From a virus (lineage: Duplodnaviria > Caudoviricetes): DNA of 49,168 nucleotides. The stretch spans positions 1-49,168 of IMG/VR virus record IMGVR_UViG_3300037419_000207. One strand, given 5' to 3'. Made by a program: the position numbers and the translations under genes. A model generated the notes under the pieces. That model was not told where the DNA came from, did no database searches, and was given only the letters and a program-made list of their open reading frames with translations. Below are positions 888-24,528 of this stretch, in pieces; positions within the stretch are counted from its first letter, which is position 1; each line of letters opens with the position of its first letter.

Positions 888-959
888 ACCCTTGTCGTCT
901 AATCGGCAAGACTCCGGGTTCTGGCCCCGGCAATTGAGGTTCGAATCCTTGCAAGGGTA
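888..959 (+). tRNA. tRNA-Gln(CTG)
   Basis: Acceptor ACCCTTG/CAAGGGT; anticodon arm CCGGG-TT CTG GC-CCCGG; T-loop TTCGAAT. Confidence 0.9.
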
Positions 960-964
960 CTTAT

Positions 965-1047
965 CTGGGTAACCGCATGGTGCGGAAGCGGCCTGTAAAG
1001 CCGTGGTCATTGCGACAGCGTAGGTTCGATTCCTGCTACCCGGACCA
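965..1047 (+). tRNA. tRNA-Tyr(GTA)
   Basis: CTGGGTA/TACCCGG-A-CCA; GCGGC-CT GTA AA-GCCGT; long variable arm. Confidence 0.85.
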
Positions 1048-1119
1048 GCCCGATTGGTCTAACGGAAATGATTCCGGATTTTCACTCCGGAGAAAAGGGT
1101 TCAACTCCCTTATCGGGTG
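1048..1119 (+). tRNA. tRNA-Glu(TTC)
   Basis: GCCCGAT/ATCGGGT; CCGGA-TT TTC AC-TCCGG. Confidence 0.88.
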
Positions 1120-1124
1120 CGTAT

Positions 1125-1195
1125 GTCGCTTTCGTCCAATGGTAAGACACCAGATTCTCAATCTGACAATACGGGTTCGATTCCCGTAAGCGATA
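1125..1195 (+). tRNA. tRNA-Glu(CTC)
   Basis: GTCGCTT/AAGCGAT; CAGA-TT CTC AA-TCTG; T arm ACGGG TTCGATT CCCGT. Confidence 0.85.
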
Positions 1196-1200
1196 CATAT

Positions 1201-1274
1201 CTAGGTATAGCTCAATTTGGCAGAGTACCGGCTTTGGGTGCCGGGTGTTGGGAGTTCGAATCTCTCTACCTAGA
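1201..1274 (+). tRNA. tRNA-Pro(TGG)
   Basis: CTAGGTA/TACCTAG; CCGGC-TT TGG GT-GCCGG. Confidence 0.9.
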
Positions 1275-1342
1275 CTTGTTACCCCTAATCGGATGCATAC
1301 GAATTAGGGAACCGTGGAATAGCTACCCACGGAAACAATAAA

Positions 1343-1411
1343 GCGGTAGTAGCCTAAATGGTAAAGCACCGGCGTTGGCCGGAGTTGCACGTTCGAATCG
1401 TGTCTACCGCT
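1343..1411 (+). tRNA. Aberrant tRNA-like RNA with a 4-nt anticodon loop (pseudo-tRNA or decoy)
   Basis: Intact acceptor GCGGTAG/CTACCGC plus D and T arms, but the anticodon arm is CCGGC-GTTG-GCCGG (3 nt short). Confidence 0.7.
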
Positions 1412-1414
1412 TAT

Positions 1415-1488
1415 GGGGATGTAGTGTTTAACGGCTAACACGTCAGGCTTCCACCCTGAAATTCGGAGTTCGAATCTCCGTATCCTCA
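1415..1488 (+). tRNA. tRNA-Gly(TCC)
   Basis: GGGGATG/TATCCTC; TCAGG-CT TCC AC-CCTGA. Confidence 0.9.
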
Positions 1489-1531
1489 CGCTACGAATAG
1501 TTCCGCTCCCTGAGTCCAGGGCTATTCTTCT

Positions 1532-1615
1532 GGAAGGTACCGCCCAGTGGTGGGCAACCGGCGTCGAATACCGGGGGTGCGGTGAAACGTAGGGGTTCGA
1601 CTCCTCTACCTTCCT
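1532..1615 (+). tRNA. tRNA-Ser(CGA)
   Basis: GGAAGGT/ACCTTCC; CCGG(C)-GT CGA AT-(A)CCGG; long variable arm. Confidence 0.75.
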
Positions 1616-1774
1616 CTTAGGATAGGCGTTCCCGAATCTCGAAACGCTTGCCACATTCGGTGCATATCATCGGAATCACTGTGAGAGGCGAATCGGTCCG
1701 AATCACGCGGGGCGGATCGCACTGGCATTCCATTTTAGAGCCATCGGTCATAGCGATGAGTATACGCCGATCTT

Positions 1775-1858
1775 GGAAGACTAACCGGCCGGGGTGCCGG
1801 ACCCCGTTGCTAGCGGGTGTGACCGTAAAAGGTTGAGTTTCGAATACTCAGGCTTCCG
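1775..1858 (+). tRNA. tRNA-Ser(GCT)
   Basis: GGAAGAC/GGCTTCC-G; CCCG-TT GCT AG-CGGG; long variable arm. Confidence 0.75.
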
Positions 1859-1861
1859 CTA

Positions 1862-1934
1862 GGCGGTGTGGCCGAATTGGTTAGGTGCCGGATTGCAGAT
1901 CCGGTTTATGCGGGTTCGAGTCCCGTCGTCGTCT
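1862..1934 (+). tRNA. tRNA-Cys(GCA)
   Basis: GGCGGTG/CGTCGTC-T (U73); CCGGA-TT GCA GA-TCCGG. Confidence 0.88.
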
Positions 1935-1939
1935 CTTAA

Positions 1940-2014
1940 CGCTCTGTAGCCCAATTAGGTAGAGGCACTGGTCTTAGAAACCAGACAGTGTGAGTTCGAA
2001 TCTCACTAGAGCGA
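1940..2014 (+). tRNA. tRNA-Leu(TAG), short variable loop
   Basis: CGCTCTG/TAGAGCG-A; CTGGT-CT TAG AA-ACCAG. Confidence 0.85.
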
Positions 2015-2040
2015 CTAGCGACCCCTAGAGGGTCGCGTAT

Positions 2041-2114
2041 CGTCCGTTAGCTTAAATGGCTAGAGCGCTACCCTGTCACGGTAGAAGGTACGGGTTCAAG
2101 TCCCGTACGGATGA
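2041..2114 (+). tRNA. tRNA-Asp(GTC)
   Basis: CGTCCGT/ACGGATG; CTACC-CT GTC AC-GGTAG. Confidence 0.88.
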
Positions 2115-2161
2115 CTTCCCGCCGGTGTGAGCGGAGGGTCCGACCCGAATCACACCATTAT

Positions 2162-2235
2162 CGGTTTGTAACTCAGTTGGTAAGAGTGCCGCTCTGATAC
2201 GGCGGAAGTCGAAGGTTCAATTCCTTCCAAACCGA
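2162..2235 (+). tRNA. tRNA-Ile(GAT)
   Basis: CGGTTTG/CAAACCG; CCGCT-CT GAT AC-GGCGG. Confidence 0.88.
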
Positions 2236-2239
2236 CTCA

Positions 2240-2311
2240 CGTCCTGTAGTTCAATGGGAGAACAGCGGGTTTACACCCCGTACGTTGCAAGTTCGAATCT
2301 TGCCAGGATGA
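2240..2311 (+). tRNA. tRNA-Val(TAC)
   Basis: CGTCCTG/CAGGATG; GCGGG-TT TAC AC-CCCGT. Confidence 0.88.
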
Positions 2312-2316
2312 CTTAT

Positions 2317-2391
2317 ACGCGCGTAGCTCAGCGGAAGAGTAAGCGGCTACGAACCGTTTTGTCGGGGGTTCGAATCCTCCCGCGCGTACCA
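2317..2391 (+). tRNA. tRNA-Arg(ACG)
   Basis: ACGCGCG/CGCGCGT-A-CCA; AGCGG-CT ACG AA-CCGTT. Confidence 0.9.
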
Positions 2392-2392
2392 A

Positions 2393-2467
2393 TGCGATGT
2401 AGAGAAGCTAGGTCATCTCGGCAGCCTCATAAGCTGTAAGTCGTCGGTTCGAATCCGACCATCGCAA
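2393..2467 (+). tRNA. tRNA-Met(CAT)
   Basis: TGCGATG/CATCGCA; GCAGC-CT CAT AA-GCTGT; initiator, elongator or Ile2 identity not resolved. Confidence 0.85.
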
Positions 2468-2469
2468 CC

Positions 2470-2540
2470 GTGGCCGAAGCCAAAAGGTGAGGCACCGGAT
2501 TGTGACTCCGGTTAAGTGGGTTCAATACCCACCGGTCACT
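2470..2540 (+). tRNA. tRNA-His(GTG)
   Basis: GTGGCCG/CGGTCAC; CCGGA-TT GTG AC-TCCGG. Confidence 0.85.
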
Positions 2541-2542
2541 CT

Positions 2543-2613
2543 GGGGTTTTAGTTCAGTGGTAGAACGAGTGTTTTGCACGCACTAGACCAGGGTTCGATT
2601 CCCTGATACTCCA
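2543..2613 (+). tRNA. tRNA-Ala(TGC)
   Basis: AGTGT-TT TGC AC-GCACT; G3:U70 identity pair present. Confidence 0.88.
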
Positions 2614-2646
2614 CATACGACCCATTCTCTTCGGGAATGGGCTTAT

Positions 2647-2718
2647 CGGGTTATAGCTCAGTAGGAAGAGCAGCGGATTGAAACCCCGCGCGCCCTGGTT
2701 CGATTCCAGGTAACTCGG
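2647..2718 (+). tRNA. tRNA-Phe(GAA)
   Basis: CGGGTTA/TAACTCG; GCGG(A)-TT GAA AC-(C)CCGC. Confidence 0.85.
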
Positions 2719-2723
2719 CTCAG

Positions 2724-2798
2724 GCTCTCATAGCTTATCTGGTAAAGCGGCTGTCTTGTAAACAGTTGAGCGGGGTTCAAGTCCTCGTGAGAGCCCCA
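2724..2798 (+). tRNA. tRNA-Thr(TGT)
   Basis: GCTCTCA/TGAGAGC-C-CCA; GCTGT-CT TGT AA-ACAGT. Confidence 0.9.
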
Positions 2799-2799
2799 A

Positions 2800-2872
2800 T
2801 GGTATGTAGCTTAATCGGTAAAGCTAGCGGCTGTTAACCGCTCGGATACAGGTTCGAATCCTGTCATATCAG
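2800..2872 (+). tRNA. tRNA-Asn(GTT)
   Basis: TGGTATG/CATATCA-G; AGCGG-CT GTT AA-CCGCT. Confidence 0.9.
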
Positions 2873-2876
2873 CAAT

Positions 2877-2949
2877 GCCTCTATAGCTGAGACGGTTGTA
2901 GCACTCGACTCTTAATCGAGGGACGTAGGTTCGATCCCTACTAGGGGCA
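2877..2949 (+). tRNA. tRNA-Lys(CTT)
   Basis: GCCTCTA/TAGGGGC; CTCGA-CT CTT AA-TCGAG. Confidence 0.9.
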
Positions 2950-2953
2950 CTCG

Positions 2954-3026
2954 CGGTCCGTATCCCAACGGCAGAGGAACCGGATTCAAACCCCGTTCAG
3001 TGTGCGTTCGAATCGCACCGGACCGA
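2954..3026 (+). tRNA. tRNA-Leu(CAA), short variable loop, weak anticodon stem
   Basis: CGGTCCG/CGGACCG-A; loop TT CAA AC; T arm GTGCG TTCGAAT CGCAC. Confidence 0.75.
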
Positions 3027-3036
3027 CAAGGTAATT

Positions 3037-3297
3037 ATGTCTGATCTTGAAAATGACGACATGCTCACCGCGCTAATTGCAGCGCGTACACAGCTTGTTC
3101 AAAACATGGAGCTTTCACGCGGTCAGCCGTACGCAGCTCTATTCAAAATGTATCTGGAAGTTCAGGAGAAAATCGAAAAACTGACTCCACCGGATGTTAA
3201 GGACACCCCCCTAGATGAGTTCTCTATCAAGCTCGCTAAAAAGCAGCGAGAACGAGAACCAGATTCCGGGGGTACAGACTCCGCGACTGGAAGTTAG
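3037..3297 (+). CDS. Terminase small subunit (putative)
   Basis: Directly upstream of and overlapping TerL; C-terminal 'TPLDEF...' motif typical of actinophage TerS. Confidence 0.65.
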   Translation: MSDLENDDMLTALIAARTQLVQNMELSRGQPYAALFKMYLEVQEKIEKLTPPDVKDTPLDEFSIKLAKKQREREPDSGGTDSATGS

Positions 3298-4702
3298 TTC
3301 TTCGTACGTCGGTTCGTATATGGAGGAAGCCGCGTTTCTCGCTTCTCAGTACGGACTAACCCCCGACCCGTGGCAATGCCATGTTCTAGAACGCTGGCTA
3401 GGTTACCGCGCCGATGGCAAATGGGCTCACTCGCGGTGCGGTTTGTCGGTACCTCGACAAAACGGGAAAAATGCGCTACTTGAAATCCGCGAATTGTTCG
3501 GCATGGTCGGACTCGGCGAAAAGTTCCTGCATACCGCGCATGAGGTGAAGACAGCCCGTAAGGCGTTTCTTCGCTTGGTCTCGTTCTTCGAGAATCCGCA
3601 AAAGTATCCAGAGCTAGCGAAGCTGGTCGATTGGGACGGGCCGAACGGCGGTATCCGTAAGACCAACGGCCAGGAAGCTATTTTTCTCAAAAACGGCGGC
3701 TCGGTCGAGTTCGTAGCCCGTTCTAAGGGTTCGTCTCGTGGTTTCACCGTTGACGTAATCGTCATGGACGAAGCACAGGAAATGGGCGACGACGCGCTAG
3801 AAGCGCTAGGTCCCACTACGTCTGCGGCCCCGCTTAAGAACCGTCAGCTTATTTGGACCGGTACTCCACCGGCCGAAGGCATGAACTCCGAAGTCTTTAC
3901 CCGTATCCGTACCCAGTCCCTAGAGGGCAAGGGTAAGCGTCTGTGCTGGCTCGAATGGTCCATGGACGACGACGGGGACATTCATTCCATCGAACAAATC
4001 GCGCAGTCGAACCCTGCGCTTAACATCCGAGTCGGTCTCGAAGAACTCCTAGAAGACCTCGACGGATACTCCGAAGAAGGCTTCGCGCGCGAGCGCGGTG
4101 GAGTGTGGAAGTTCGCCGGTACTGAGGCTGTCATTGATCCGGATTCGTGGAATGCGGTAGGCGACGGTGCTTCACTGATTCTCGACCCGGTTGCTTTCGC
4201 GGTTGATATCGGACCTAAGCGTGATACGGCTTCGATCGCTGTTGCCGGTCTACGCGACGACGGCCGGTACCACGTCGAAATTATCGACCACCGCAAGGGC
4301 ACTGATTGGATTATCCCCCGTCTCACACAGCTTATTGCCCAGTGGGAACCGGTTGCGGTAGTCGTTGACGGACCAGCTTCGTCGGTTGTGCCGGAACTCG
4401 AACAGTTGAAGGTACCGGTTTACAAAACCACGGTGGTTGAACTCGGCGTAGCGTGCGGCATGTTCTACGACGCTGTTATGTCGAAGACGCTTCGGCACCC
4501 AAACCAGCCGATTCTATCTAACGCGGTAGACGCTGCCCGTCAGCGTCCGCTAGGCGATATGTGGGCGTGGGGTCGTCAGCTTTCCGAATCTGATATTACG
4601 CCCGTCGTTGCCGTAACTCTGGCTTTGTGGGGCTTCGTTAAGGCTAAGCCTCGAAAGAAAAAGAAGGCTTCCGCCAACACTAAAATGATGGTGCTTTCTT
4701 AA
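3215..4702 (+). CDS. terL: Terminase large subunit
   Basis: Walker A VPRQNGKN, HTAHE, Walker B VIVMDEAQ, GTPP coupling motif, nuclease AVDIG and DITP motifs. Confidence 0.95.
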   Translation: MSSLSSSLKSSENENQIPGVQTPRLEVSSSYVGSYMEEAAFLASQYGLTPDPWQCHVLERWLGYRADGKWAHSRCGLSVPRQNGKNALLEIRELFGMVGLGEKFLHTAHEVKTARKAFLRLVSFFENPQKYPELAKLVDWDGPNGGIRKTNGQEAIFLKNGGSVEFVARSKGSSRGFTVDVIVMDEAQEMGDDALEALGPTTSAAPLKNRQLIWTGTPPAEGMNSEVFTRIRTQSLEGKGKRLCWLEWSMDDDGDIHSIEQIAQSNPALNIRVGLEELLEDLDGYSEEGFARERGGVWKFAGTEAVIDPDSWNAVGDGASLILDPVAFAVDIGPKRDTASIAVAGLRDDGRYHVEIIDHRKGTDWIIPRLTQLIAQWEPVAVVVDGPASSVVPELEQLKVPVYKTTVVELGVACGMFYDAVMSKTLRHPNQPILSNAVDAARQRPLGDMWAWGRQLSESDITPVVAVTLALWGFVKAKPRKKKKASANTKMMVLS

Positions 4703-6897: not shown

Positions 6898-6968
6898 GGG
6901 GAAATAGTTCAACGGAAGAACAACGGTCTCCAAAGCCGTATATCCGGGTTCGATTCCTGGTTTCCCTG
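6898..6968 (+). tRNA. tRNA-Trp(CCA), isolated within the head operon
   Basis: GGGGAAA/TTTCCCT-G; ACGGT-CT CCA AA-GCCGT; T arm CCGGG TTCGATT CCTGG. Confidence 0.9.
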
Positions 6969-7043
6969 CAACGCACACACGCAGCGGTCAATGCGTGGTT
7001 CGGCCGGTTCAGGCCACCAGACATGGTTATGGAGATAAAACAA

Positions 7044-10764: not shown

Positions 10765-11037
10765 ATGCCCCCACGTAAGAGCACTCCTGTAGAAAAGACC
10801 GATTTCACTTACACGCTGGAAGATGGCTCGACAATCTCGCTTCCTGCGTTCAATTCGGTTAAGCCTGGTCTGATTCGTCGTATCCGCAAGCTGTCGGACG
10901 TTGACCAGTTCTTCACTGTTCTAGAAGAACTAGCCGACGAAGACACAATCGTGAAGATTGACGACATGGATCACGAGACATTCGAGGATTTCCAGAAAGA
11001 ATGGTTCAAGCACTCAGGTGTTGACGTGGGGGAATGA
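10765..11037 (+). CDS. Tail assembly chaperone (gpG-like)
   Basis: Between major tail and tape measure genes; slippery GGGGGAA just before the stop. Confidence 0.85.
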   Translation: MPPRKSTPVEKTDFTYTLEDGSTISLPAFNSVKPGLIRRIRKLSDVDQFFTVLEELADEDTIVKIDDMDHETFEDFQKEWFKHSGVDVGE

Positions 11038-14400: not shown

Positions 14401-16082
14401 TCCTGCAACTACCCGAGATTAAGGGTATCGAGCCTATCAAGCTCGCTACCGGTGGTTATGTTTCGGGTGCGGGTGGTCCAAAAGACGACTTGATTCCTGC
14501 GATGTTGTCGAACGGTGAGTTCGTTCTGAACGCGGCTACTGTGTCGCGTATCGGTGTGGACAACCTAAACCGTATCAACGGTGGTGGAACCGCCGATGGA
14601 CTCGCGTCGCTTGTGCCTAAATTCAATGCCGGTGGTGAGGTCGAAGCGAGCCTGATCCGTGCACACGAGTTCGCCCGTTCTATGGACGGTCGCGCTTACC
14701 TCATGGGTGGCGAAGCTCCCGGACCTACCGACTGTTCCGGATTCATGTCCGCTATTGCGGACGTGGTTCTAGGCGGCTCGGGTCATGGGCGCTGGTGGGC
14801 AACTACCGCGTTCCCTAAGTCTCAGGCTTCGAACGTTACTGCGGGTGGTCAGCACTGGGCCGGTGGGCTCGGTAAGGGATTCTCTATCGGTGTCCTGGGT
14901 GGCGCTGATTCCGGCGGAGCTAACGGCCACACGGCCGGAACTCTAACCGGGGCCGGTAAGTACCCGACTATCAATGTCGAGTCCGGCGGTTCGCACGGAA
15001 ACGTTGCGTACGGTGGTCCGGCTGCGGGTGCGGATTCGCGCCAGTTCCCGACTCAGTACCACTTGCCGTTCATTGACGGCATGTTCGAGTCCGGGGGTTC
15101 AGGCGGGGGTCTATTTGGCTCTGTAACGCACTGGCTCCGCGACAAGGTAGGTGACCTATTCGAGAAGCCCGTTCGGGCGCTAGAAGGGCTAATCCCGGTC
15201 TTCCCGGGTGCCTACGGTGCGACACCTAAAGCGGTCTACCACAAGATTGCCGATGCAACTATCGACTTCGTTAAGGGCAAGGCCAGCAGCGAAGACGGTA
15301 ACGCGGGGCTCGGTGTTCCGGGTACCGGTCCGGTTCAGGACCAGGTGCGCCAGGCGTTCAGTCGTTACGGCTGGGGAGACGGTGACCAGTGGGCTGCGGC
15401 TGCGTGGATTATCGCGCATGAATCGTCGTGGAACCCGACAGCACGTAACCCCGAATCGGGGGCGTTCGGTCTAGCTCAGTTCCTTGGGTCGACTAAGGAT
15501 GCGTACCTACCGGACGAGAACCCGAACCCGGGTGTTCAGGGTGACGCTATGGCTCGGTATATCCGTGACCGTTACGGCACTCCGAAGGCTGCACAACAGT
15601 TCTGGATGGCTCACAACTGGTACGACTCCGGCGGTATCTTCCCGAACAACTCGATTGGTATTAACCAGTCGGGTAAGCCTGAGGCTGTTCTTACACACGA
15701 TCAGTGGAAACTATTCACCAAGTTTGTTGAGCTTCTAGGCCAGGGAAAGCTAAGCGAAGCTATCGGTTCGCTTAACAACGGTCCTGCGTCGTCTCCGGTA
15801 ATCGTGGTACAGACGGGTAATCCGAATGATCCGAACCCGATTACGCCGGTTGCTCCGGGAACTCAGCTCACCGCTGAGAACGTAACCCAGCGCCTACAGG
15901 GAATCGGTTCGGACTTCGTTTCGGCGAATGTCGACCAGTTCCTAGGCGATATCGGTACACGTTCCTCGGGTGGTGCGGTTCAGGAATTGGTTAAGCAAAT
16001 TCAGACGGCTATGGCTCAGCAGATCGCACAGCAGCTAGCACAGCAGCGAGCGCAGGCGGCTCCGTTCGTCGGTCGCCGCTAA
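11451..16082 (+). CDS. Tape measure protein with C-terminal muralytic domains
   Basis: 1543 aa, AYVSILPS N-terminus, Ala/Gln-rich and W-periodic repeats; DCSG motif and HESSWNP.A.N..SGAFGLAQF lytic-transglycosylase motif. Confidence 0.95.
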   Translation: MAIEIATAYVSILPSTARLKPAIRQALKEVQAEADRNPVEVKSKTDNRALQATAKALSGIGAASAGVSAAGAGIAAIGGAAGLAAGAVGALGIGMAALGGAAAAGVATVAVGVHGVADAFKAAKAAQESYADDAAAKAKAVESAQKGVTSALRSQQSAERQLRDAKRASQSAEEDLTRTRKDETRALEDLNRQVAKGKLDEEGAALAVAEAERDLQKARMSSTDPLEIADAQHRLNEALSDQQDVLIRNARTQQEANEANAKGVEGSDKVVAAKDRVAKANEGVETAQQAVADSNAQLLEATKALSDAQNQSSASAKKYDEALSKLSPNAQAFVQQMVALGPAMSNSLGKPVQDALFANLATDFASLATTSIPALREGMTGVAGAINNAGRSFASFMSQASSQDAIRAAFAGTRDVINGSIGGIQTLTQGLMNMTIAAQPAMASIGNSIGVMFGSLGSTLTQLANSGALTTLFQNFAGILASLGPTLSGLVNALVTMGNAAAPGIEALFNALGPALQNIAGPLGQLGNLFGQALASILPTLSQLISGLATGLQPVLPIIAQLLNSLGTALMPLIGPISQITQVFGTALVQAIDALAPAVGPLGTAFASLVNALAPILPLIAQVISMFVQALAPALTTIFNAFAPVIQQLVSQLQPIFQQIAPVLSLVANTIATVLTQALQALAPVLPIIIDAFMQWLQAIMPLIPSLMELVLAVLPVMVELINLLVPVIGKFADVLSWLATNVLGGILVPILQSVIGFLANDLGPIFTWLWQDVIQPAWTGIGSVFSFVWNSILKPIFGAFGEAIRIAAGILLTVLIAPAMIAWNLFGGAIKSVYNSLIKPIFEAFGDSAMWLWQNALKPAWDGIGAVISGVYDSVIKPTLDGIHVALDGLGDFFQFIWDKVISPAWSALGTGLKFVYDKVISPVFDGIKSALGLVKDAFKTAVDYIGKVWDGIKKVMADPINFVIDKILNNGIFAAWNKVAGFLQLPEIKGIEPIKLATGGYVSGAGGPKDDLIPAMLSNGEFVLNAATVSRIGVDNLNRINGGGTADGLASLVPKFNAGGEVEASLIRAHEFARSMDGRAYLMGGEAPGPTDCSGFMSAIADVVLGGSGHGRWWATTAFPKSQASNVTAGGQHWAGGLGKGFSIGVLGGADSGGANGHTAGTLTGAGKYPTINVESGGSHGNVAYGGPAAGADSRQFPTQYHLPFIDGMFESGGSGGGLFGSVTHWLRDKVGDLFEKPVRALEGLIPVFPGAYGATPKAVYHKIADATIDFVKGKASSEDGNAGLGVPGTGPVQDQVRQAFSRYGWGDGDQWAAAAWIIAHESSWNPTARNPESGAFGLAQFLGSTKDAYLPDENPNPGVQGDAMARYIRDRYGTPKAAQQFWMAHNWYDSGGIFPNNSIGINQSGKPEAVLTHDQWKLFTKFVELLGQGKLSEAIGSLNNGPASSPVIVVQTGNPNDPNPITPVAPGTQLTAENVTQRLQGIGSDFVSANVDQFLGDIGTRSSGGAVQELVKQIQTAMAQQIAQQLAQQRAQAAPFVGRR

Positions 16083-16087
16083 TAGAC

Positions 16088-16121
16088 GGGGAGGGTCGGG
16101 TATTCCGGCCCTCTTCTTTTT
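16088..16121 (+). terminator. Intrinsic terminator after tape measure gene
   Basis: GGGGAGGGTCGG...CCGGCCCTCTTC followed by TTTTT. Confidence 0.65.
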
Positions 16122-16142
16122 CATGCATCCCAGAGAGCTTAA

Positions 16143-17060
16143 ATGGACACAATTATTCAGGTCGAGTCTTGGGATGGTCAGTTCTGGACTATTGCCGGTC
16201 AAGGCAAGGGAGACCGGGGCGTATGGCTCGGCGAAGACGTTTCCGGATTCTGGTACGCACCCACATCAACGATGTGGAATTCCACCGCGTTTCAGGATGG
16301 CGCAGACTTCGGCGGTACCCGCGTAGACAAACGAACTCTTACGTTCGACGTGGAGATTTTGAAGACTCCCGGCTCTACTTGGGAGAAGAATTGGAGCGAC
16401 TTTATTCGGGCGTTCCGGACCGACCGTGAAACTAAAATCTGGTACGAGACCGAAACGTCTCGCCGGTTTTTGATTGTTCGTCTCTCGAAGAACGCTGATA
16501 TGCGTCCGAAAATTGACCCTCAGCGGTCGGGACATTCGACAGTCACTATCGAAGTGGTTGCCGGTGACCCGTACTGGTACGAAGACGTAGAAGTATCGGA
16601 GTTCATCGCGGAGACCGACACCACCGTTTCCGGCATGGAGAACGGCACGGTAGCGCTCTATAACGAGACACCCCTATTCATGTGGCCGGTGTGGGTTTTC
16701 CAGGGCACAGCGGGGATTGTGTGGCGTATTCCGGACTGGTCTTTCGGCCAGGAAGCTATGCATGACCGACCAGACGGGGCGGACGCTACCCGACGCATCA
16801 TCATGGCACCGACCATCGAAAATGAACACGTCGTAGTTGACGTTGACCCGATGGCTAAGAACGGCCAGTTTAATTCTTCGCTAGACACTGAATATCAGCT
16901 ACGTATGGGCGGTGTTCGGTTTATGTACCCGGTTCCGGATTACACCGGGACGAAGGCTAACCCGATTCTATTGCCGGTGTCTGTCTCTGGCGCACCTATC
17001 GGGGCTGGAATCCAGCTTCGTATGCGTCGCGCGTGGCCGACACCTATGGGAATGTGGTAA
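16143..17060 (+). CDS. Minor tail protein (distal tail, L5 gp27-like)
   Basis: GDRGVWL, VVAGDPYW motifs; follows the tape measure gene. Confidence 0.85.
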   Translation: MDTIIQVESWDGQFWTIAGQGKGDRGVWLGEDVSGFWYAPTSTMWNSTAFQDGADFGGTRVDKRTLTFDVEILKTPGSTWEKNWSDFIRAFRTDRETKIWYETETSRRFLIVRLSKNADMRPKIDPQRSGHSTVTIEVVAGDPYWYEDVEVSEFIAETDTTVSGMENGTVALYNETPLFMWPVWVFQGTAGIVWRIPDWSFGQEAMHDRPDGADATRRIIMAPTIENEHVVVDVDPMAKNGQFNSSLDTEYQLRMGGVRFMYPVPDYTGTKANPILLPVSVSGAPIGAGIQLRMRRAWPTPMGMW

Positions 17061-18764
17061 TGGCAACAGTAGAAACAATCGACTTCGAGGCCGTCTATCA
17101 AGACATCGTTTCGCGTCTAAAGAAAGACGAACAGCGGCGTGAATCTACACCGCATGTTCAGATTTGGAACGGCGACTGGGATTACGTCGGAGAAGTACAC
17201 CGCGAGATTGCCGCTTCGTTCCAGCGGCTAGACAATGAAACCGGTATCGGAACCATTGAACTACCCGCTTCGTATTACCTAGCCAAGTGGCTTACCGACT
17301 CCAAGAGTCGAGCCGGACACAAAAACGTATTCGTTACCGTGGATTACCAGGGAATGCGTTGGTCCGGAACCCTTGACGAAGTAGAGCAGAAGAAAGACAA
17401 CACCGGTTATCGCACCGTTGTTGCGACCTTCTTGCACGATTACGAACACCTAAAGCACATCCTGGCATATAGTAACCCGTTCCTCCCACCAGAATTGCAG
17501 TTCCCCCGCATCTGGGTCTGCCCCCCGTCTGTAATGGGCGGGGGGCAGGCCGGGTGCCTTAAAATGTATTCTGTTTGGGCCTTCGAAATGGGCTCTAAAG
17601 CTAACGCTTTTGGTCAATCTAATGCGCCTAGAGTCTTCGCTCTGGGCTTTGCCGGATGACCCGCTAGACCCTGCGGAATGGTTCAATTTCGACCAGTCCA
17701 CTTGGTCTCAGGTCGTAGCGCCACTGAAAATCGAAGACGATAACTCTCAGTTCTGTATCGGGTTCTCCCGGTTCAAAGCTATGCACGATGTCTCTAAGAA
17801 GATCGTTGCGGACGCTCAGCTTTCGTGGATGCCACGCCGGTACCTCGAAGGTGACCCCGAGCCGTGGCCGGGCGCTAATTTGCGCCACGGCACATTGATC
17901 TGGGACCTGGTAGACAATTCGAACCACACCGAAGAAACATCGTTCGGTGGTTCGGTGTGGACGGGTCTAGAGCGTGCGTTTGTGAACATCGCAGATGACG
18001 GAATGACCGAGGGAATCGACTACATTTCCGATCCAACTTTCCCGGCCGAATACTCGGAACCGGGCTGGACGGGAACGATTGCGTGGGCTCCCGGAATCAT
18101 TCTCCGCGACGGTGACTACACCGCGATTTCATCTAATTCGTTCAAGTGGAAGCCAGCCACAGACGTTGGCTTCGTAGCCGGTGGTCATTCGATGCCGGGT
18201 GTAAACGAAGCTATTTCGGCTGCAATCCAAATGGCCGGTGACCTTATCGCGATGATGATCGGTGTACCGCCTATCGGTGGTGCTACCGATGCAGTGCTAA
18301 AGCCGCTGTACACAGACACGGTTCTAGCGTTTATGAAGTGGAAAGACATCGGCCGTGCTCAGGATTTGGGTTGGTCTCATTTCCACGAAACTTGGTGTGA
18401 TGGTTCCGACCGTGCATACACGCTTAGCGCGCTAATCGCGCTGCGCTCCGGTATGTGGCGAACACGTGAGCAGATTTCACACACCGTCGAAATTACAGAC
18501 GGTTGTGAAGGTCTCCGCGTAGGCGCTAACGGATACGGCAACTGTGACATCGGTACACGTATCGGTGTGACCGTTAAGGGATTCGGTCAGCCTGGTCAGG
18601 TTTGGATTGACCGCGTATCTGAGCTAACGCTCGGATGGGCTCGGGACACTACACCCGGATTCAAACTAACCGTTGGCGCTCGCGTAATTGAAGACCCGGT
18701 AGTCAAGGGCATGGAACTTATTAAAGAAGCATTCTCTATGGGACAGGAACTAGGTGTGTTGTGA
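17060..18764 (+). CDS. Minor tail/baseplate hub protein (L5 gp28-like), interrupted by a 52-nt insertion at ~17516-17567
   Basis: First frame reads ...SNPFLPPELQFPRIW; the +1 frame resumes ILFGPSKWALKLTLLVNLMRLE...; together these rebuild the contiguous gp28-family motif (recalled as FPKLWIIFGPAKW in L5-like phages). Confidence 0.85.
17508..17557 (+). other. Strong RNA hairpin spanning the coding-gap insertion
   Basis: GTCTGCCCCCCGTCTG-TAA-TGGGCGGGGGGCAGGC core, extendable by GCATCTG/CGGGTGC. Confidence 0.8.
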
Positions 18765-19372
18765 CAGGAATCCCTACACAAGAATCCTGCGATTGGAATA
18801 ACCCGAGTGAAGCGCTTCTGTGGGCTTCTATGTACATCCCGGTATTGGGTCGGTCTCCGATGGTTTTTCCGCGTTTGATCGCTGAGAAACTGTCGGAGCA
18901 TTACGACGCTTGCGGATTCGTTCACGTTGACCGCATCGCAGCCCTAGCGGACGAGAACGGGTACATCCACGTAGACCAGCTACCGAAACAGCGACAGAAG
19001 CTTGTCCGCCCGTATCGCGGACAGCAGACGGAGCTAAACCCTATGGGTCGCTGGGCTCCGATGGATGAGGAAGAACCCGAGCCGATCGTTATTCAGGACC
19101 CGGTTGCTATGACGGTTCATGAACGAGAAGCACAGGTCGAGCGTCTACGGTATCTCGGTTACAAAATCAATGAACCCGAACCGGAGAAGCCTAAGGGTGG
19201 GGTCGAAGACCCGCTAGACCTTCCGCCGGAATTCGATCCGGATCAGCATTCGGTTACCGAAGTGAATGCGTATCTACGGATTCTCGATAACCGTACCGAG
19301 TACGTACGGGTTATCCGCGCAGAGAAGCGCGGACAAGCTCGTAAAGGAATCTTGAAACGGTTTGACGAATGA
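18761..19372 (+). CDS. Minor tail protein (L5 gp29/DUF2744-like)
   Basis: IPTQESCD..NP.EALLWA, SEHY..CGF and RG....NP.G.W motifs. Confidence 0.75.
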   Translation: MTGIPTQESCDWNNPSEALLWASMYIPVLGRSPMVFPRLIAEKLSEHYDACGFVHVDRIAALADENGYIHVDQLPKQRQKLVRPYRGQQTELNPMGRWAPMDEEEPEPIVIQDPVAMTVHEREAQVERLRYLGYKINEPEPEKPKGGVEDPLDLPPEFDPDQHSVTEVNAYLRILDNRTEYVRVIRAEKRGQARKGILKRFDE

Positions 19373-20913
19373 CACGGTGTTACCCGCTTAAGTTCGGCAC
19401 GTACACGTTGTCGTCCGGATTCGGTATGCGGTGGGGTTCACTCCACGCCGGACAAGATTTTGCCGCTGCCGATGGCACACCTATTTATGCCTGCCAGGGC
19501 GGAACCGTTAAGTACATCGGTTCCGCTTCCGGTTACGGGCAGTGGATTGTCATTGACCATGACGATTCAGACGGTGGCGGGGTTACCGAATACGGGCACA
19601 TGTGGGATGCGTTCGCTACCGGGCTGCGTGTAGGTGACCGCGTAGAAGCGGGTCAGCTTATCGCGTATGTCGGGTCTAACGGTGAATCCACCGGACCACA
19701 CCTACATCTCTCGGTTATGCCCCGTGAATACAACCCGAACGCCAAGATTGACCCTCTCCCCTGGTTGTCTGGCGCAGTCGAGCCAGGGCAGGAAGCTAAG
19801 CCAATGACAGATATTTTTTGGGCAGACGTTTCGGAATTTCAGGTTCCGGTTAACGACGCTTACCCGTATGACGTTCTAGCTATCCGCTCGAACGATGGAA
19901 CATACCGGGACAACAACTTCGCAGAGAATTACCGATGGATGCGAGCCGCCCTAGATTCGGGTCGGCTTAAGGTCGGAATCGTTTACGCATACCTTCGCCC
20001 TAACTGGGGCGAGACTGCCGACACCATGATTGACATGATCAATCGGAACGGTGGTCTTCACCCGAAGGTTGCGCTAATGCTGGACGTAGAGTCCGGCGGT
20101 AACCCGGTAGGTGGTGCGGCTGACTGGATTAACCGCACGTATTGGCGGCTAGCTGACTTCACCGGAGACCGTAAGCGCGTATTCGGATACGCGAACCGTG
20201 GTGACTTCGATTCGATGTGGTATGAGCGCCCGGACGGGTTGCTTGTGATCGGTGCCGGATACGGCTCGAACCCTCAGCTCCCCGGCCAGATTGGTCACCA
20301 GTACACAGACGGTCTTATCGGTGCCGGTCAGGGCTTGCCTATGGGCGTTGCCCCGTTCGGTAACTGTGACATGAATACAGCTCCGATGACTTCGGATGAA
20401 CTCGCAGCGGCTCTAGGTGTCGGCGCTCCCCCGGTCAACCAGATTGACCTAGTGGCAGCGGACCAGGCGAACAATTGGCTTGGTGACCGAATCACTCGCG
20501 GGGAGAACGTAACCCCGGACGGAGTTGGTCGCTTCGCTCAGTTCGCCAACGGTTACGTGTATTGGCATCCGGACCATGGTGCTTACGCGATTCCTACCCG
20601 GCTGTTCGAGGCTTACGCCGAATACGGCTGGGAGGCTGGCGAATTGGGTTACCCGGTTCAGCCGTACACCCACACACCCGAGGGCGATATTCAGGCGTTC
20701 GCCGGTGGGGTTCTGTACCGGAAGAACGGCGCGGCTCACGGGTATTACGTCCGTGGCGCTATCGCCTACCGCTGGGCTTCGCTCGGTTGGGAGAAGTCCG
20801 TTTACGGATGGCCTACAGGGCTCGAAACGGATCACGACGGGGGCAAGGTACAGACCTTCGAAAACGGGGCTCTGTATTGGAATCCGACCAGCGTAATCGG
20901 CATTACTAAGTAA
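19369..20913 (+). CDS. lysA: Endolysin (lysin A): M23 peptidase + GH25-like muramidase + LGFP repeats
   Basis: H.GQDF and TGPHLH (M23); WADVSEFQ, LDVES, HQYTD (GH25-like); GELGYP and YGWPT..E (LGFP-like). Confidence 0.9.
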   Translation: MTRCYPLKFGTYTLSSGFGMRWGSLHAGQDFAAADGTPIYACQGGTVKYIGSASGYGQWIVIDHDDSDGGGVTEYGHMWDAFATGLRVGDRVEAGQLIAYVGSNGESTGPHLHLSVMPREYNPNAKIDPLPWLSGAVEPGQEAKPMTDIFWADVSEFQVPVNDAYPYDVLAIRSNDGTYRDNNFAENYRWMRAALDSGRLKVGIVYAYLRPNWGETADTMIDMINRNGGLHPKVALMLDVESGGNPVGGAADWINRTYWRLADFTGDRKRVFGYANRGDFDSMWYERPDGLLVIGAGYGSNPQLPGQIGHQYTDGLIGAGQGLPMGVAPFGNCDMNTAPMTSDELAAALGVGAPPVNQIDLVAADQANNWLGDRITRGENVTPDGVGRFAQFANGYVYWHPDHGAYAIPTRLFEAYAEYGWEAGELGYPVQPYTHTPEGDIQAFAGGVLYRKNGAAHGYYVRGAIAYRWASLGWEKSVYGWPTGLETDHDGGKVQTFENGALYWNPTSVIGITK

Positions 20914-22581: not shown

Positions 22582-22780
22582 CTACCGGTGCCCCGATTGC
22601 AATTCGTTTGAAATCTGGGACTTTGACGCTCCCGGGTTTGAGGATGCTTCCGCCGAGATGATCGCGGCGCACGAAGCGACCCACCAGTTCCAGCTAGAAC
22701 ACCATGACGGAGACGTGGAAAAGATGCAGATGCAGCTACAGAACCCGTCTCTATTCGCAGCCACCTACGGGGCTGAGTGA
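22574..22780 (+). CDS. Hypothetical protein (CxxC...H motif)
   Basis: AAGGA RBS; tight packing with neighbours. Confidence 0.65.
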   Translation: MADYRCPDCNSFEIWDFDAPGFEDASAEMIAAHEATHQFQLEHHDGDVEKMQMQLQNPSLFAATYGAE

Positions 22781-23085
22781 CTATGGGTATGGGATGGAAA
22801 CCGATTTTCGAGGTTATCAACCTCTCTAACGGCGACTGGATTTACTCGCGAACCAGCCCAACCACTTTGCCATCTGGCACTACCGCTCAGATCGTTTGGG
22901 CGAACGGGGTTACGTGGGATGCGGTGGTGGACGGAAACACCGTCACGTGGCGTGTAGAGGCTGCGTCTGTAGCTCTCGTGCCATCGGGCACGGCTTACTC
23001 AATGTTCGTCCGGTACCCGAACACGACTACCGGCACAACCGATGACTACGAATGGAAGAACGGACGTTCGTTCCGTCGCCCGTAA
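22777..23085 (+). CDS. Putative minor tail protein
   Basis: Beta-rich; GTGA overlap; lies in the tail module. Confidence 0.6.
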   Translation: MTMGMGWKPIFEVINLSNGDWIYSRTSPTTLPSGTTAQIVWANGVTWDAVVDGNTVTWRVEAASVALVPSGTAYSMFVRYPNTTTGTTDDYEWKNGRSFRRP

Positions 23086-23097
23086 GGAATTATTAAT

Positions 23098-23445
23098 ATG
23101 GCTTTGCGTGTACTCGCTACCGCTAACGCGGCGGCTCAGGACTGGGCTAATAAGGGCGCTACGTATTCTCTGCACACCGGTAACCCCGGCGCGTCCGGTA
23201 CAGCTAATGAGGCTTCCGGTGGAGGATACTCCCGACAGACAACTACATGGGGTTCTCCGTCTAACGGTGTGATTACCGGTTCGCAGATTACGTTTACTGT
23301 TCCTGCGGGAACCTACACGCATATGTGCCGGTGGAACGGCACAACCCTGCTGGACATTATCGACACGGTAGACGCAACGATTAACCCGGCCGGTGAAATC
23401 AAGGTAACACCTTCGAACGACGCTAACTACGTAGCTTGGGTCTAA
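23098..23445 (+). CDS. Putative minor tail/fibre protein
   Basis: SLHTGNPG..G..NEASGGGYSRQ motif of actinophage tail-fibre-associated proteins. Confidence 0.7.
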   Translation: MALRVLATANAAAQDWANKGATYSLHTGNPGASGTANEASGGGYSRQTTTWGSPSNGVITGSQITFTVPAGTYTHMCRWNGTTLLDIIDTVDATINPAGEIKVTPSNDANYVAWV

Positions 23446-23448
23446 GAC

Positions 23449-24528
23449 ATGACGGAAACATTTCCTAACCCCGATACGGCTGTGGTGATGTTTCCGGTTG
23501 CTGATTCCGTAGCCGAGTCTTTCCCCGGTGCTGGTTCCCGAACAATCGAGTTCCCGGCACCGGATTCGGTAACCGAATTGTTTCCCGGTATGGATTCGGG
23601 AATCGCCGTGTTCCCAACACCGCCGATCGTTACCGAACAGCGCCTAGCGCAAGTAATCATGGACATGACGCCATCGGCGTCGTGGATTGTTATTCCGTGG
23701 CGCGACGCTGCGGTATTCATGGGTATGTCTCCGGGCGCTACGCCATTCGTTTCGGTAGCGGTCAATGCTCCCGTGTTTATGGACTTCACGCAGTCGGTTA
23801 CGTACGGCGTAGCGATGGACGCTCCACAGTCAATGAATGTGACACCTCAGGCTGTGGTTACCCCGGCAGTGTCAACCCCTGCTGTGGTCTCGTTCGATCA
23901 GGTAGCTAACGGTAACCCGGATTACATTGACGTGATTGTGGTGGCGGATGTTCAGACCGCTATGAATATCGCGGCTCAGGTTCAGTTGTACGGCTTTATC
24001 GGTGCCCCGGTCAGTGAGTCTGCTGTACCGGATGCATTGGTTAAACCGTCTCCGTCGATTACGGTTCCGGTGTCTATGGCTATGGTTCCGAACGCTTCGC
24101 TTACCGTGGTCACGTTCAAACCGTCTGGCATGAACAAGTCCGGTTCTCAGACCATCACAGCTACGAGTAGCTATACCCAGGTAACCGGTTGGGTTGCGGA
24201 CACCACGAACTACCCCGGCTCTACCGTGTCGAGTAACGCTCTTGTCATTCAGTCCACCGGTACAGCCAAGATCAGCGCGAGTATCACCAACACGAACAGC
24301 AACAGTTCCACGACAACTACATGCCGTATTTTGGTGAACGGGACAATCGTTGCTACCGGCTCGGCGTCCCCAGCGTCCACGGGTTCGTTCCCGTGGACGA
24401 ATACATGTACGGCTACATGGACCGGGGCGGTTACTGCTGGTCAAACGGTTACTATCGAATTCGATATGGCGCTGTTCGCCAGCGCAACTATTACGGCTGG
24501 TTCGGTCACTGTAATTAATGCTGGCTAA
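23449..24528 (+). CDS. Putative tail fibre / receptor-binding protein
   Basis: Val/Thr/Ser-rich repeats; C-terminal 'PSGMNKSG...VTGWVADTTNYPGS' domain. Confidence 0.65.
   Translation: MTETFPNPDTAVVMFPVADSVAESFPGAGSRTIEFPAPDSVTELFPGMDSGIAVFPTPPIVTEQRLAQVIMDMTPSASWIVIPWRDAAVFMGMSPGATPFVSVAVNAPVFMDFTQSVTYGVAMDAPQSMNVTPQAVVTPAVSTPAVVSFDQVANGNPDYIDVIVVADVQTAMNIAAQVQLYGFIGAPVSESAVPDALVKPSPSITVPVSMAMVPNASLTVVTFKPSGMNKSGSQTITATSSYTQVTGWVADTTNYPGSTVSSNALVIQSTGTAKISASITNTNSNSSTTTTCRILVNGTIVATGSASPASTGSFPWTNTCTATWTGAVTAGQTVTIEFDMALFASATITAGSVTVINAG

Follow-up and report, generated by a model that had tools for sequence, protein, structure and literature searches.

The baseplate hub gene (gp28-like, PF14594) of a virus record is divided between two reading frames by a 52-nucleotide (nt) gap that carries a long hairpin. 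The record is IMG/VR IMGVR_UViG_3300037419_000207 (Duplodnaviria; Caudoviricetes), rated 100% complete, and its whole length of 49,168 bases is referred to below as the window. The insert is real and recurs in homologous hub genes and, judging from sequence comparison, it is most likely a new form of programmed bypassing. A full-length hub is probably made by ribosomes that would leave the message at a UGG codon, skip the gap and resume beyond it; joined from the two hub parts, this product would have 550 amino acids (aa). The features of the split gene, all on the + strand, are as follows.

17060..17515, +, 5′ part of the hub coding sequence (gp28-like, PF14594): 152 codons ending in ...QFPRIW, profile positions 2-116
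17508..17557, +, long G+C-rich stem-loop, which takes in 8 coding bases; no U-run behind it, not terminator-like
17513..17515, +, predicted take-off codon UGG (Trp), paired within the stem
17516..17567, +, coding gap of 52 nt, missing from uninterrupted homologues
17516..17659, +, zero-frame read-through: 47 non-homologous codons up to TGA, giving a truncated product of 199 aa if not bypassed
17532..17534, +, loop TAA that ends the downstream frame 11 codons short of the resume codon
17558..17564, +, unpaired A/U-rich spacer of 7 nt that separates the stem from the landing triplet
17565..17567, +, UGU, predicted landing triplet, able to form two of the three base pairs with tRNA-Trp
17568..18764, +, 3′ part of the hub coding sequence, beginning at resume codon AUU: 398 codons, profile positions 115-369

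The hub gene is split by a precise gap

In a profile search the PF14594 gene appeared as two frames, with no second copy in the window. The gap borders exactly between Trp and Ile of the conserved motif FPRIW/ILFGP; it ends in TGT, followed by ATT at 17568, and the zero frame is open throughout. A preliminary description of this DNA had placed the TGG at 17513-15, the 52-nt gap ending in TGT, the ATT at 17568 and a downstream-frame TAA at 17532-34, all of which were confirmed. Its claim that removal of exactly 52 nt restores the motif is borne out by five homologues (one 81% identical), which are uninterrupted and leave an alignment gap of exactly 52 columns after TGG. The hairpin also reaches upstream coding bases as described there, from 17508 on; the fold of 17490-17600 has an energy of -58.9 kcal/mol (z -5.66) and none of 200 shuffles was as good. 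No U-run was found behind the window stem, so this feature of an intrinsic terminator is lacking.

Further support came from assembled Logan contigs. The contig of run X1 is identical to the window over 15000-20000; X1 is possibly the source of the record and hence not independent. Contigs of runs X2 and X3, from relatives about 90% identical, have a net 52 nt fewer, and X3 joins 17515 directly to 17568. In X2 the 52 bases upstream of the gap (17464-17515) diverge more than the remaining gene, while X3 matches there; the divergence may reflect co-transfer of the flank with the insert. Sequencing error was ruled out by the symmetric C6/G6 runs, the identical Logan contig and ten homologous inserts.

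The PF14594 protein is the baseplate hub, since a relative matches Bxb1 gp25 and Douge gp18 in sequence and fold. The Douge hub is trimeric (PMC13033339). In the model of a related protein (P0009; mean predicted local distance difference test score 75) two of the insert sites, C and D, lie within a predicted strand (151-156), with a long helix directly after it.

Homologous inserts recur at four codons of hub genes

Eleven distinct homologous inserts with DNA were found at four nearby codons of the hub gene, all downstream of the same conserved HDYEHLKH..NPF region. Their lengths are 48, 48, 49, 52, 52, 52, 53, 53, 55, 55 and 72 nt. All three frames are represented, and the three in-frame inserts contain in-frame stops. 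Removal of the insert restores the hub motif gap-free. The preliminary description had suggested a search of homologues for hairpin inserts at the same codon, with stem covariation and lengths of 3n+1. Hairpin inserts do recur, at the same and at neighbouring codons, their stems covary and the last triplet follows the take-off codon; the 3n+1 length does not always hold.

A pattern anchored on the flanking codons gave G004, a distant phage (portal 31%, hub 65%) with a 53-nt insert at the same codon as the window; its closer relative G002 is uninterrupted. A search with the N-terminal half returned truncated hub proteins, several source-labelled Nocardia or Rhodococcoides. Among 130 stored proteins of at most 320 aa, 46 (near-duplicates included) terminate in residues encoded by the start of this hairpin: 11 after HIL.W, 28 after NPF, 4 after FPR.W and 3 after xxF. 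DNA was then searched in 267 genomes of the genus of G659, probably Nocardia from the labels of close proteins; 154 had hub matches, and the listing covered 150 matches, with 190 more beyond it. The 60 locus rows examined were picked partly for split matches and so give no prevalence figure. Thirty-six of them have no length change, 12 (10 distinct) have a hairpin insert, 9 (8 distinct) a 130-aa intein-like insert and 2 one extra codon elsewhere; one gave no result. The eleventh case, L251, came from a hairpin pattern that omits the gap end and is therefore blind to the last-triplet feature described below. Insert carriers thus number at least 9 of the 267 genomes.

Wider searches added little. 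The exact window hairpin had no match in IMG/VR. Gene-anchored patterns gave one true match of two in IMG/VR (G004), one of one with a second pattern, one of six in metagenomes (the same contig) and none of six in GTDB, the remainder being chance matches. Hairpin-core patterns hit 91 and 59 loci, among which G004 alone was convincing. A site-B peptide pattern had no match in IMG/VR, and the three matches of a Phe-type pattern there are all identical to known inserts. By blastn no insert homologue was found in GenBank phages, whose 2428 hub-bearing records were not inspected singly. Outside the hub gene, the 267 genomes gave 9 non-hub matches vs 13 control matches, none shown to be gene-breaking. 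In 381 genomes of other genera there were 34 matches and no junction-length frame was seen (short frames of 256 and 204 aa were left uninspected); family genomes had matches in 54 of 201, again with no junction-length frame (shortest 252 aa). Broader samples gave one weak match in 301 and two in 401, and a further sample two in six, both open. Another candidate, P0007, looks like a plain frameshift and was left out of the count.

Two other observations were made in these searches. Long conserved hairpins like the insert ends occur at L239:1501-1561 and L244:1501-1561, in a common chromosomal place that is apparently intergenic. There is also a second class of truncated hub halves, seen as proteins alone (P0038-P0044, P0061-P0075, P0087-P0129), which end exactly at NPFL in 23 proteins and in an HDYEHL-like sequence in 28; its clade is nearest mycobacteriophages such as McProf, Che9d and LilSpotty. 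These are possibly cases of a Leu take-off codon followed by a stop, or of an intron.

The end of the insert follows the codon before it

All inserts start with G and two pyrimidines, form a single long stem and end a few bases past it. The stems are G+C stems of 19-25 bp that span most of the gap; their 3′ arm pairs with the codon ahead of the gap, and the take-off codon is paired in 11 of 11. Five of the 11 inserts share the same geometry, and in these 95 of 95 cells are paired and 9 of 19 pairs have changed on both sides, the structure being derived from the same sequences as were tested. None of 500 shuffles was as high and slid controls were far lower. G-U pairs are retained in the stem.

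The last triplet is TGT, TGA, TGA and TGC in the four inserts that follow TGG, and TTC, TTC, TTG, TTA, CTC, CTC and CTC in the seven that follow TTT. In all 11, L251 included, two or more of its bases can form Watson-Crick pairs with the anticodon used at take-off. This was the case in 0-1 of 11 at nine upstream offsets, in at most 5 of 11 at downstream offsets and in 2 of 11 when the classes were swapped. The middle base is G in all four Trp cases and T in all seven Phe cases (Fisher 0.003, with cases that are not independent); counting the four sites only, the chance of such tracking is about 6e-4. In nine of 11 the triplet has drifted to a stop, Cys or Leu codon, as would be expected of a triplet that is left undecoded. 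The Phe take-off codon is always TTT: at the NPF site all 21 uninterrupted genes have TTC, vs TTT in all 5 inserts there. A mini Shine-Dalgarno sequence lies 5-7 nt ahead of the landing triplet in 7 of 11, where its G's also pair in the stem, so that the two are confounded.

Proposed mechanism of bypassing

The preliminary description had proposed a hop from UGG to a near-matched UGN with resumption at AUU. The proposal withstood the comparison above, and bypassing is what we infer from it. While the P site holds UGG (or UUU), the long stem would form again over the take-off codon and block the A site. The peptidyl-tRNA would then let go, slide beyond the stem and, 6-7 nt past its end, pair again through two of three bases with the landing triplet; the codon after that triplet would be the next one decoded. 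The stem itself may cause the stall by moving into the A site, as analogy with the stem-loops of PMC7282821 suggests. Re-pairing in the P site is put forward because it is the sole account of a gap end that tracks the prior codon while drifting to stop, Cys or Leu.

Several points weigh against bypassing. The codon after take-off is GTC, GCC or GCT in 11 of 11, with no stop and no rare codon; these are used 17-45 times per 1000 codons in the structural genes of the window. Landing and take-off triplets are identical in 0 of 11 and cognate in 2 of 11 (TTT/TTC), and three landings are CTC, with a first-position mismatch. The window has no mini Shine-Dalgarno sequence 5-7 nt ahead of the landing triplet. 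A target-site duplication at insertion could have left the same match without translational use; under neutral drift the chance that the middle base is spared is 0.03, and that no triplet has two changes 0.11. Nine of the 11 insert cases are prophages, a cultured phage with the insert was not found, L223 stops downstream of the gap and the upstream gene of L221 is fragmented. Selection in sister pairs, given below, could predate a horizontally gained insert.

Alternative explanations

A nuclease and a ligase acting in trans could remove the gap from the mRNA, or it could leave as a degenerate intron, with the stem joining the ends. Precise borders, a stem that pairs with the 5′ exon and a first gap base that is always G would suit such a process, and in one register (first G kept, cut after base 1 of the last triplet) the third base is free and the codon is Gly or Val in 11 of 11. 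This shifted register, which would add Gly or Val, is compatible with the sequences. In the exact register no base is conserved at the 3′ end, where T, A, C and G are all present, and shifting the register brings in stops, or an added or altered residue in a stretch where 36 of the 60 locus rows show no indels. The 49-nt RNA excision raised in the preliminary description, with a U.G 5′ site and terminal G, fared no better: U before the insert and G at its end, the features of a group I or degenerate group I intron, occur together in 3 of 11 in the 49-nt register, and Rfam had no match in seven loci. Excision also leaves unexplained why the last triplet should follow the codon ahead of the gap, and we regard it as unlikely.

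Rather less likely is that the inserts are selfish or neutral ones in dead genes, their carriers being helper-dependent or extinct prophages. Most DNA-backed carriers are indeed prophages, two of them visibly decayed, and no cultured carrier was found. Against this, 395-414 codons beyond the gap are free of stops in the 9 intact cases among 10 measured, the stem has undergone compensatory changes, and pN/pS (nonsynonymous to synonymous polymorphism) is low across the gap. It is 0.19 and about 0.3 in two sister pairs with a common site, on either side of the gap, where synonymous sites are close to saturation, and 0.06-0.26 in uninterrupted control pairs. The hub is the sole split structural gene of the window compared with the 47.5-kb relative G001, the genome being otherwise intact as the preliminary description had noted. 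The gains or losses on the tree, at least eight and all within the same 55-nt stretch, also speak against dead genes.

A split gene whose hub is assembled from two polypeptides, the second made by re-initiation, is a similarly improbable, slightly weaker account. The window has an in-frame TTG at +14, and the lambda hub is assembled from several proteins (PMC13033339). The first in-frame start after the gap, however, lies anywhere from codon 0 to +61 (at +48, +44, +38 and +24 in four cases), which also tells against the two separate polypeptides considered in the preliminary description. Late starts lose the conserved FGP strand and the next helix, and the first half would carry a tail of 1 to 61 unrelated residues.

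Skipping at the DNA level, by precise excision in a subpopulation, or by an RNA polymerase that jumps the template hairpin, is very unlikely. The inverted repeat is strong and a 2-nt direct repeat stands at the ends, but loss of the DNA between these repeats would leave TGA in two cases and Cys or Leu in others, the retention of G-U pairs in the stem suggests RNA, and X1 contigs hold no gap-free form (contigs drop rare variants). A simple programmed frameshift, such as the +1 slip at CUU-AAA suggested earlier, would add about 17 residues through the open zero frame of the window gap, and is scarcely credible: homologous inserts would need shifts of +1, +2 and 0, so no fixed +1 would serve, 6 of 11 hit a zero-frame stop within seven codons, and the extra residues would fall in what is modelled as a strand.

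Gain, loss and possible origin of the inserts

A quick tree of 33 rows was built, with 12 uninterrupted loci left out. It requires at least eight insert gains or losses, with no clustering (97 of 500 shuffles were as low), and all fall in the same stretch of about 55 nt that spans the four sites. This patchy spread and the four insertion sites suggest a mobile element. No endonuclease was found in the 35 of 76 neighbouring open reading frames (ORFs) that were scanned, nor in 31 ORFs of the window.

The 130-aa intein-like inserts (Cys ... His-Asn-Cys) lie two codons after FPKxW in L207-L211, L213, L217 and L222; another intein-like insert is present near residue 370 of the hub gene in L197 and P0013. 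Since the four hairpin sites surround the position of the intein-like inserts, and a protective origin has been proposed for the T4 insert (noted in PMC5009743), shielding of this stretch from homing by the hairpin inserts is a lead, drawn by analogy.

The window genome

Two genes flank the hub gene.

16143..17060, +, upstream minor tail gene (PF05709), intact; its stop overlaps the hub start
18761..19372, +, downstream gp29-family gene (PF10910), intact

The window is a temperate actinophage with an integrase, repressors, a DNA polymerase and 23 tRNAs. A lone tRNA-Trp gene at 6898-6969 stands in the head operon, away from the cluster of 21 tRNAs (888-3027), and is missing in G001. A phage tRNA-Trp as partner of the insert was considered and is unsupported, no tRNA being seen in the partial record of G004. 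GGGGGAA at 11027-11037, shortly ahead of the point where the first tail assembly chaperone ORF terminates, is presumably the usual -1 frameshift site of that gene. Distal tail genes at 22777-24528 are common to the window and G004 (1696-3299), at 38-70% identity; there is no match between the window and G001 or G002 over this part. This hints at a shared host or past exchange.

Comparison with known systems

Programmed bypassing is known from very few systems, T4 gene 60 being the bacterial model, and there a nascent-peptide signal is required besides a stop codon and a landing codon that matches. The signals that are truly required would stand out from a natural series in which there are two take-off codons and four sites, gaps measure 48-72 nt and a stall codon is absent. 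How widespread bypassing is also becomes a question that can be tested directly in a laboratory actinobacterium. For annotation it would mean that insert-bearing hub genes are being recorded as defective or as a pair of genes. Searches of a literature collection that lacks most subscription journals gave no account of inserts like these in hub genes.

The preliminary description likened the window gap to T4 gene 60. The likeness holds for the take-off codon in the stem; it fails in that no stop or rare codon follows take-off. Like the T4 cassette and its myovirus homologues (bioRxiv 10.1101/2022.08.31.505936), the hub inserts are non-coding inserts of about 50 nt in a phage gene, with the take-off codon in the 5′ arm of the stem (here in 11 of 11), a landing triplet that adjoins the resume codon, an A/U-leaning 3′ end and a patchy distribution. 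In T4 gene 60 and its homologues a single tRNA has to read both the take-off and the landing codon, and a stop or hungry codon is needed as well (bioRxiv 10.1101/2022.08.31.505936). The hub inserts, in contrast, have no stop or hungry codon after take-off, and their landing triplet differs from the take-off codon in every case and would mostly call for another tRNA. They also differ in the single G+C stem of 19-25 bp over most of the gap, in take-off at Trp and Phe vs Gly and Asp, and in the stable tetraloop cap (UUCG type), present in 1 of 10 folded (L204). Where T4 gene 60 is a topoisomerase gene with a MobA endonuclease element, the hub is a structural gene entered at four sites with none among the neighbouring ORFs scanned. 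Since same-tRNA landing and the stop or hungry codon both fail, the hub inserts are not members of the T4 gene 60 class; they likely work alike.

The terminase bypass of Streptomyces phage Hau3 (PMC10732093) is likewise found in an actinobacterial phage, in an essential morphogenesis gene and at a conserved junction. Its gaps are of 7-10 nt and triggered by a rare UUA, whereas the hub inserts of 48-72 nt have no UUA trigger and a long hairpin. Stem-loops that dock in the A site at dnaX and in HIV (PMC7282821) suggest that a hairpin alone could stall decoding, as our model needs, although they drive -1 frameshifts and not long hops.

A further comparison, by description, is with the mitochondrial byps of Magnusiomyces (PMC5009743, PMC13461519). 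These are short mobile hairpin-type inserts at several sites, 27-55 nt in size; likewise 10 of the 11 hub inserts measure 48-55 nt, with four sites and near-matched landing. The imperfect take-off and landing matches of byps have been attributed to two-of-three pairing (PMC5009743, PMC13461519, bioRxiv 10.1101/2022.08.31.505936). Unlike byps, the hub inserts would act on the bacterial ribosome, have no unused codon in the A site and are confined to one gene so far. With belief and doubt evenly balanced, we propose that they are a bacterial counterpart of byps: a self-contained mobile bypass element for bacterial ribosomes. One long hairpin that covers the take-off codon would be enough to halt the ribosome and set it off, with landing on two of three bases and neither a stop nor a hungry codon required. 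Such an element would have entered a single essential gene repeatedly, at four codons, and may be kept there by its protection of a stretch that is also an intein target.
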